In this document: positions 12,211 through 12,372 of the stretch, one piece after another | How positions within the stretch are numbered: position 1 is the stretch's first letter | Layout: each line of letters starts with the position of its first letter | Assembly (NCBI GenBank): GCA_964016885.1 | Contig: OZ024754.1 | Location: 25,482,001-25,546,000, forward strand | Direction: 5' to 3' | DNA from: Eledone cirrhosa | Taxonomy: Eukaryota | Length of the DNA stretch: 64,000 bases | The notes under the pieces: generated by a model | Databases searched by the model: none | What the model was told of the DNA's origin: nothing | The model's input: only the letters and a program-made list of their open reading frames with translations | Made by a program: the position numbers and the translations under genes

Positions 12211-12372
12211 AAACTTTTGATGTATTAAAGGCTTCTTTGTTTTACTCTCTTAATTTTTCGGCTCTGTTTAACTGCATTGAGCTATACCTTTTTCTGTCAT
12301 TTCTATAATACGAAGAGGGTGTTTAACTCCAACACGCTCCAGTATTTTAATCCTTATATATATATATACATA

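Follow-up and report, generated by a model that had tools for sequence, protein, structure and literature searches.

What decides where an inserted copy of a Penelope-like element (PLE) ends, and why is its tail often present at one end only (PMC8557442, Fig. 2 legend)? The window analysed here, a 64,000-nt stretch of the Eledone cirrhosa genome (31% GC), poses this question many times over. In it, nested repeat units are separated by dense (TA)n arrays, the insertions sit in (TA)n, and most units are inverted pairs with the element 3' end on both sides. The ends occur in a short and a long form, and the difference between the two is the known PLE 'tail'. A preliminary description had placed one class of ends just 5' of a bulged hairpin and interpreted this position as a candidate internal, telomerase-like priming site. 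We find that the feature is real and wider than was then reported. All counts given below come from the 64-kb window and from related loci.

Several ORFs in the window are broken, and their translations give an RT followed by a GIY-YIG endonuclease; in one case this RT with its C-terminal endonuclease, of Hydra-clade type, runs through two frames of the minus strand (18067..20755, with the ATG at 20755). The translation of family A contains RWR, DKT, YRDD and CxCX5C motifs, DKT is also found in family N, and the CxCX5C linker is common to A, B, D and N. Pfam returned weak matches for 3/10 ORF pieces, the GIY-YIG matches near the C-terminus of A and B (E 0.003 and 0.002) lying below the Pfam cut-off, and a protein search gave 643 RT-endonuclease homologues, with Argonauta hians as the best named relative. 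A pattern scan placed a hammerhead core and its stems in the pLTR, with cleavage predicted; in family A this type I hammerhead occupies 12170..12214 (plus strand), and its putative cut, taken from the consensus, follows 12201. An Rfam search of the window at gathering thresholds gave no hammerhead or other match, and the viral contigs searched held no relatives of the window elements.

The Hydra clade is described as having RW[KR], DKT, CxCX5C, a C-terminal GIY-YIG endonuclease, a canonical hammerhead and (TA)n targets (PMC8557442). By their motifs, C-terminal endonuclease, hammerhead and (TA)n target, the tested elements are, as far as sequence can tell, Hydra-clade PLEs; families C, E-I and L are without coding sequence and were assigned by the common hammerhead-hairpin layout only. 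The earlier attribution to Naiads was rejected, given that Naiads have an N-terminal endonuclease and are without the canonical hammerhead, whereas in the tested window ORFs the endonuclease is C-terminal and the hammerhead is present. Naiads do resemble the window elements in their (TA)n targets, pLTRs, inverted arms and tail. Within the Hydra clade, family A differs from the short published elements in its much longer 3' UTR. Between the PLE units lies a non-LTR-type RT fragment (42106-43275, minus strand), with a YADD motif identified by eye.

We compared 19 short-end junctions from 10 families (A-I and the added family L), each with an uninterrupted copy, excluding the copy at 33731 that lies within a 100% identical duplicated block. 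In all 19, the last base common to the uninterrupted copy is found 3-9 nt before the bulged hairpin, designated HP1 (16 offsets were obtained by script, and those at 453, 46239 and 47240 by eye, the script having halted at an upstream mismatch). The junctions listed in the preliminary description are all present in the window, and their placement just 5' of the hairpin is upheld; the range of 3-15 nt then given contracts to 3-9 nt, the former count having been made from the left edge of an ambiguous overlap. Nor are the junctions uniformly clean, since those at 16134 and 36286 carry a G, that at 62157 a C, those at 5548-5554 and 43560 extra CT units, and that at 59452 an extra 4 nt. One window end, at 30644, is an exception in lying approximately 6 nt after a bulged hairpin.

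Unit A1 illustrates the arrangement. The segment 12241-12355, to which the feature had been assigned, does contain the short site (12252..12254, plus strand), which matches the ends at 7669, 16134 and 13502, but the arm at this position is long-ended and runs through that site. HP1 follows at 12261..12282 (plus strand), with a 4-bp base, a 2-nt 3' bulge and an upper stem, and the tail (12255..12355, plus strand) ends at the long junction with (TA)n. The inverted arm of the same unit (7669..9086, minus strand) is short-ended and 98.4% identical to the long arm. A further HP1 lies where the pLTR reads through into the ORF in unit A2 (20903..20924, minus strand); in family H the hairpin has a long loop and a weak fold (53247..53315, plus strand; short ends 62157 and 63721, long end 53410). 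The bulge of HP1 starts with U, and its basal helix occurs in the window in compensated variants, namely GCTC/GAGC, ACTC/GAGT, GTTC/GAAC and TCTC/GAGA. Single hairpins fold weakly in 8/12 cases, and in just 4/12 did 10 or fewer of 200 shuffles fold as well; hence the case for the hairpin is made by conservation and covariation. Copies of family J (29503, 30300, 38897), in which no hammerhead was found, have one common 5' boundary beside a small hairpin in the read-through copy.

The association is not restricted to one class of ends, as had been supposed, for long ends precede a second hairpin, HP2. Sequence beyond the long site is visible in five families, and four of them (A, E, I and L) contain this hairpin there; families J and G show no clear HP2 in window sequence, and the remaining window families have no read-through copy. 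Five long ends are available in A, E and I; those of A1, A2, A3 and E stop 7 nt short of HP2, and that of I stops 4 nt short of it. In family A, HP2 is located at 20806..20823 (minus strand), and the long ends 12355, 15726 and 23684 all correspond to the position 7 nt before it.

The same layout extends to other hosts. Metagenome contigs were scanned with a 32-sequence alignment, and the best 78 of 486 related loci were analysed; in these the 5' UTR follows the order hammerhead, approximately 35-60 nt, HP1, HP2, ATG. A hairpin just before the ORF ATG is present in 55 references, HP1 is in view in 41, and the HP1-HP2 spacing is 55-83 nt. The strict motif gave 134 matches in these best 78 of 486 loci against 0-2 in five Markov resamples, a procedure that does not preserve the repeated copies of the real loci. 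Of 46 junction rows, 23 had a reference from the same locus or one of at least 95% identity and were retained, the other 23 falling below the identity rule, and removal of a duplicate (L049) and an inverted-arm boundary (L031 minus) left 21. External ends lie 3-9 nt before a hairpin in 18 of these 21 (HP1 6, HP2 12), the other three being inside the hammerhead (two) or in mid-spacer (one); scoring L031 minus as a miss gives 18/22. Even with the prior set generously at 25%, the probability of 18/21 by chance is about 1e-8, a value to be read with the 3-9 nt window having been set after seeing the data and with several loci being related.

Covariation was counted by script because automatic alignments lost the hairpin register. 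With no pairing filter applied, the fifth pair is canonical in 94/94 distinct motifs (C-G 66, T-A 28), the sixth is canonical or G-U in 67/94, and the bulge reads UU in 63, UC in 20 and UA in 11. In two-hairpin loci the first base of the fifth pair is T in 60% of HP1 and C in 96% of HP2, a difference that suggests an old duplication with specialisation. One family (L069:185, L069:2671) has a single hairpin, and its 3' copy diverges shortly past it. Among published consensi (PMC8557442, examined by eye), Hydra-1_Ajap starts 2 nt before HP1 and has both hairpins ahead of the ATG, its other end being a short TA run past the hammerhead, and three further Hydra consensi carry HP1 or a variant near the 3' end.

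Short and long ends also tend to occur together. We counted 18 two-ended units, their classes assigned by eye in a nested cluster, and left out single-arm copies, duplicated copies and the unclear composites 61050-62158, 38481-39445 and 51007-53410. Short is combined with long in 14/18 (A1, A2, A3, B1, C1, C2, D2, D4, E, F, I, O, R and T), and both ends fall at one site in four (G, N, S and U); were the two ends chosen independently, no more than half of the units would be expected to combine short with long (p=0.015). In unit A2 (16134..23684), the 5.6-kb ORF arm has the short end, at 16134, and the 1.7-kb inverted arm has the long end, at 23684, and in A3 a short end at 13502 and a long end at 15726 flank HP1 at 15634-15655. 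Unit B1 runs from a long end at 785, with HP1 at 943-910 (minus strand), to a short end at about 5554 with extra CT units. Unit C2 has its long end at 30763, HP1 at 30844-30820 (minus strand) and its short end at 31071, with a 7-nt overlap. The corresponding short end, HP1 and long end are 39670, 40379-40424 and 40462 in D2, 45025, 45954-45975 and 46048 in F, and 36287, 36932-36983 and 37703 in E, where HP2 is at 36373-36390. Unit I has a long end at 59797, HP1 at 59956-59896, HP2 at 60382-60366 (both minus strand) and a short end at 60739. Unit G (46239..47240) has two short ends, HP1 at 46759-46736 (minus strand) and no clear HP2. The partial tandem of family L (12369..13296, plus strand) comprises an internal (TA)7, HP1 at 12673-12694, a minimal HP2 at 12766-12781 and a short end at 13296. 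Families O, R and T (48259-48992, 31133-31968, 62490-63421) have tails of approximately 58, 39 and 68 nt and overlaps of 4, 6 and 2 nt; their ends are offset yet without a GCTC/GAGC hairpin, and may use another signal.

The content of the arms bears on how the two ends arise. Arms reach up to 5.6 kb from the start site, and either arm may be the longer and contain sequence absent from its partner. In C1 (453..770; short end 453) the long arm, from approximately 17 nt before HP1 (680-704), is nearly tail-only, and in D4 (56701..59452) a tail-only long arm of 83 nt from the hairpin base (56783-56701, minus strand) accompanies a short-ended arm of 2.7 kb; both tail-only arms begin at about the short site. 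Hence neither arm is a fold-back copy of the other, and both ends are most simply taken as RNA-templated starts. In A2, D4 and F the short arm exceeds its partner in length, and its origin by fold-back second-strand synthesis was likewise rejected on this ground. Three-copy comparisons for one common RNA template gave private differences only and are thus uninformative on a shared RNA. Short inverted tail-region arms like that of D4 are seen directly upstream of the ORF arm at two loci from other hosts (L003:230-470 and L064:640-960).

From the motif, its duplication and covariation, the end positions, the short and long pairing and the tail-only arms, all directly observed, we infer protein binding, the identity of ends with starts, a single RNP or dimer, primer pairing and the joining of cDNAs. 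The bulged stem-loop GCTC-Y...R-UN-GAGC-ACU occurs twice past the hammerhead in the pLTR/5' UTR RNA, and on each copy one subunit of the RT-endonuclease would dock, thereby fixing the RT start in the single-stranded linker 3-9 nt 5' of the hairpin. The endonuclease would open both strands of an AT-rich target, here (TA)n; one 3'-OH would start before HP1 to give the short end and the other before HP2 to give the long end, usually within the same RNP. The two cDNAs would later be joined at their truncated ends to yield an inverted insertion that is tailed on a single side, and the tail would be as long as HP1 and HP2 are spaced apart. Pairing of 1-7 nt between the primer and a short TA-like stretch of the linker would probably help and would not be required. 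Taken as a whole, we regard this two-start reading as moderately probable. It is tempting to speculate that a dimeric PLE RT-endonuclease sits on the two hairpins and starts both strands at once, with one subunit at each target end, on short TA-pairing linkers that slippage can recopy; this extension is rather doubtful, and if it held, structure-programmed twin priming would explain both the PLE tail and the inverted repeats and would resemble a forerunner of the internal-template priming of telomerase.

In the twin priming of L1, both target ends prime on one RNA, at the poly(A) end and at a chance internal match. The tail-only arms of D4 and C1 resemble a first cDNA halting where the second primer sits. 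The elements described here differ in that both starts would be internal and fixed by structure and in that the arms usually overlap, which calls for strand displacement or a second RNA.

How much of this is owed to pairing of the primer? The preliminary description proposed, in a strong form, that the nicked (TA)n 3' end pairs with an internal AUAU-like template segment which the hairpin holds in place. Such annealing can be compatible with the twin-hairpin reading, and we consider its strong form a tentative possibility. Over the 12 nt that precede a hairpin, alternating A/T runs have a mean length of 3.68 (n=50), compared with 2.44 in spacer windows (n=85) and 2.96 in composition-matched shuffles, of which 0/5000 reached the observed value (25 de-duplicated of 37 references, one doubtful call having been dropped and the rest merged at 75% identity). 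Overlap in the window likewise exceeds that at upstream positions (21.8 vs 10.6, p=0.003). Once position is fixed, however, it equals chance relative to the pre-hairpin window (p=0.50; 0.11 without family L) and is marginal relative to a wide window (p=0.059; 0.005 without family L). The pre-hairpin TA runs, moreover, could be target sequence captured during tandem formation; runs of (TA)7-8 precede a hairpin in family L and at locus L059.

Strict (TA)n overlaps at the individual junctions, in nt, are 2, 0 and 2 in A, 0 and 0 in B, 7 and 3 in C, 4, 4, 4 and 0 in D, 0 in E, 3 in F, 5 and 5 in G, 0 and 3 in H, 3 in I and 0 in L, several of the zeros being such as would rise if one mismatch or slip were permitted. 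The short AT run originally reported at the ends is nearly absent in family A, to which the originally reported coordinates belong and whose site is constant across three subfamilies with an overlap of 0-2 nt. At long ends the overlap is 1-2 nt (A, E and I), and approximately 8/18 hairpin-linked external ends join non-repeat DNA (by eye). Furthermore, the Poseidon element of Anolis (PAc) starts without target homology (PMC11167929). Extra units of 2-6 nt at 5554, 43560 and 59452, CT or AATA at these three short ends, may reflect primer realignment; together with a (TC)44 run at 54151 they hint at slippage at initiation, and later microsatellite change would look alike. In unit S (53753-54302), whose two ends fall at one site, the right end enters this (TC)44 and then (TA)32, a possible case of reiterative synthesis. 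The annealing claim is sustained in part, by the enrichment of TA runs before hairpins in relatives and not by overlap beyond what position predicts: hairpin position is primary for the ends, and primer pairing a probable helper.

The term 'telomerase-like' did not hold in its strict sense, since arms extend up to 5.6 kb and no template boundary stops synthesis; it is a loose analogy and not a statement of membership. Telomerase and the telomere-attached Athena/Coprina PLEs share with the window elements a related RT, an internal RNA segment beside a structured element and a short primer-template overlap. They differ in that synthesis here is kilobases long, pairing is apparently optional, and neither a bounded template nor repeat addition is in evidence.

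The ends could instead be sites of cutting or resolution, with the endonuclease recognising the hairpin motif in cDNA or DNA and cutting the adjoining AT-rich linker. Resolution by the endonuclease was put forward for the tail in PMC8557442, and for the D. virilis endonuclease a requirement for the tail in plasmid DNA is cited in PMC11167929. In further favour of this view, the GCTC/GAGC base is identical on the two strands, and the linker resembles an endonuclease target. We nevertheless judge this explanation unlikely. Sandwiched cells of G-U type outnumber those of A-C type by 7 to 1, which favours sense RNA (small numbers from related sequences); the variable length of the hairpin (16-28 nt in relatives, longer in the window) speaks against a duplex DNA site; and the genomic ends of PAc coincide with RT starts in vitro (PMC11167929).

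The ends could also be inherited, either because read-through transcripts of short- or long-ended copies, terminating in (UA)n, prime at the RNA 3' end by simple pairing or through later loss of one tail by deletion between the internal TA run and the flank. Read-through self-priming has been proposed (PMC3846280), (TA)n follows every end in the window, and identical junctions recur in 3/4 of family D; all of this would accord with inheritance. What this account leaves unexplained is the constancy of the 3-9 nt offset, at both hairpins and among divergent families, the pairing of short with long ends and the tail-only arms, and also the ends joined to non-repeat DNA and the fixed family A site without a TA run; we therefore consider it quite improbable. 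Later tail deletion was rejected.

It is very improbable, and largely excluded, that the hairpin is a bystander and that the ends track the hammerhead cut, the 3' terminus of the RNA or the AT content of the neighbourhood. In favour of this view, the putative cut lies 52-66 nt from HP1 in 6/9 families, and 2/21 external ends are inside the hammerhead. Yet the distance falls to 38 nt in D and rises to 85 nt in I and 297 nt in E (range 38-297 nt over the nine families) with no departure of the end offset from 3-9 nt, so that the hairpin and not the cut fixes the ends. Long ends follow HP2, and longer TA runs approximately 30-70 nt past the family A long site and inside the D hairpin go unused, so that AT content alone does not drive the junctions either.

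The two-start reading has its nearest known counterpart in PAc, where the tail lies between two internal RT starts in vitro, both strands are extended, hammerhead cleavage is not needed and an RT-endonuclease dimer is predicted (PMC11167929). In light of these in vitro starts, internal priming as such is not new. PAc and the present elements have in common two internal starts downstream of the hammerhead that bound an optional tail, and an AT-rich target. The PAc tail, however, is 30-40 nt, whereas the spacing here is 55-83 nt in relatives and roughly 90-160 nt in the window, and the PAc start lies in the ORF inside an AC-rich stem-loop rather than in the 5' UTR 3-9 nt before a duplicated hairpin. 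The account in PMC11167929 located the two internal starts but no conserved signal. In the PAc RNA printed there, GGCCA...GAAAG occurs twice, each time followed by an ACAAC run, and the reported start is on the second run (by eye); this doubled motif lies 5' of the start and is only a lead.

A duplicated hairpin that would set both ends, and thus explain the tail, appears to be new to the literature. The word 'hairpin' is absent from the main text of PMC8557442 and both 'hairpin' and 'stem-loop' from its supplement text, the tail being ascribed to endonuclease resolution. No twin hairpins at PLE ends were found in the titles and opening abstracts searched, a range that leaves subscription papers and Repbase notes uncovered; the fold in Fig. 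S2C of PMC11167929 may bear on the matter. As to how PLEs pick their copying start and come by a one-sided tail, the duplicated, covarying hairpin with its fixed 3-9 nt offset would represent a precise and movable cis-element. The offset predicts element boundaries for annotation, and the twin hairpin bears on the origin of internal-template priming in the telomerase lineage. If the site is indeed movable, it would also supply a minimal RNA handle for programmable cDNA insertion.

Several further arrangements in the window merit mention. A 2.7-kb tandem repeat (29503-32202 and 32203-34872) is 100% identical outside (TA)n and may be a segmental duplication or an assembly artefact. Within 49072-51006, unit U is flanked on either side by 100% identical copies of a 102-bp family O piece with (TA)n, an arrangement that resembles a very long target-site duplication. 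At 51007-53410, a minus-strand PLE ORF of YVDD type adjoins a long-ended arm of family H whose hammerhead differs, possibly a chimeric insertion from two RNAs. Finally, 23771-24963 holds a 420-bp tandem retrozyme-like array with hammerheads, the right end of which lies approximately 4 nt before a putative hammerhead cut.
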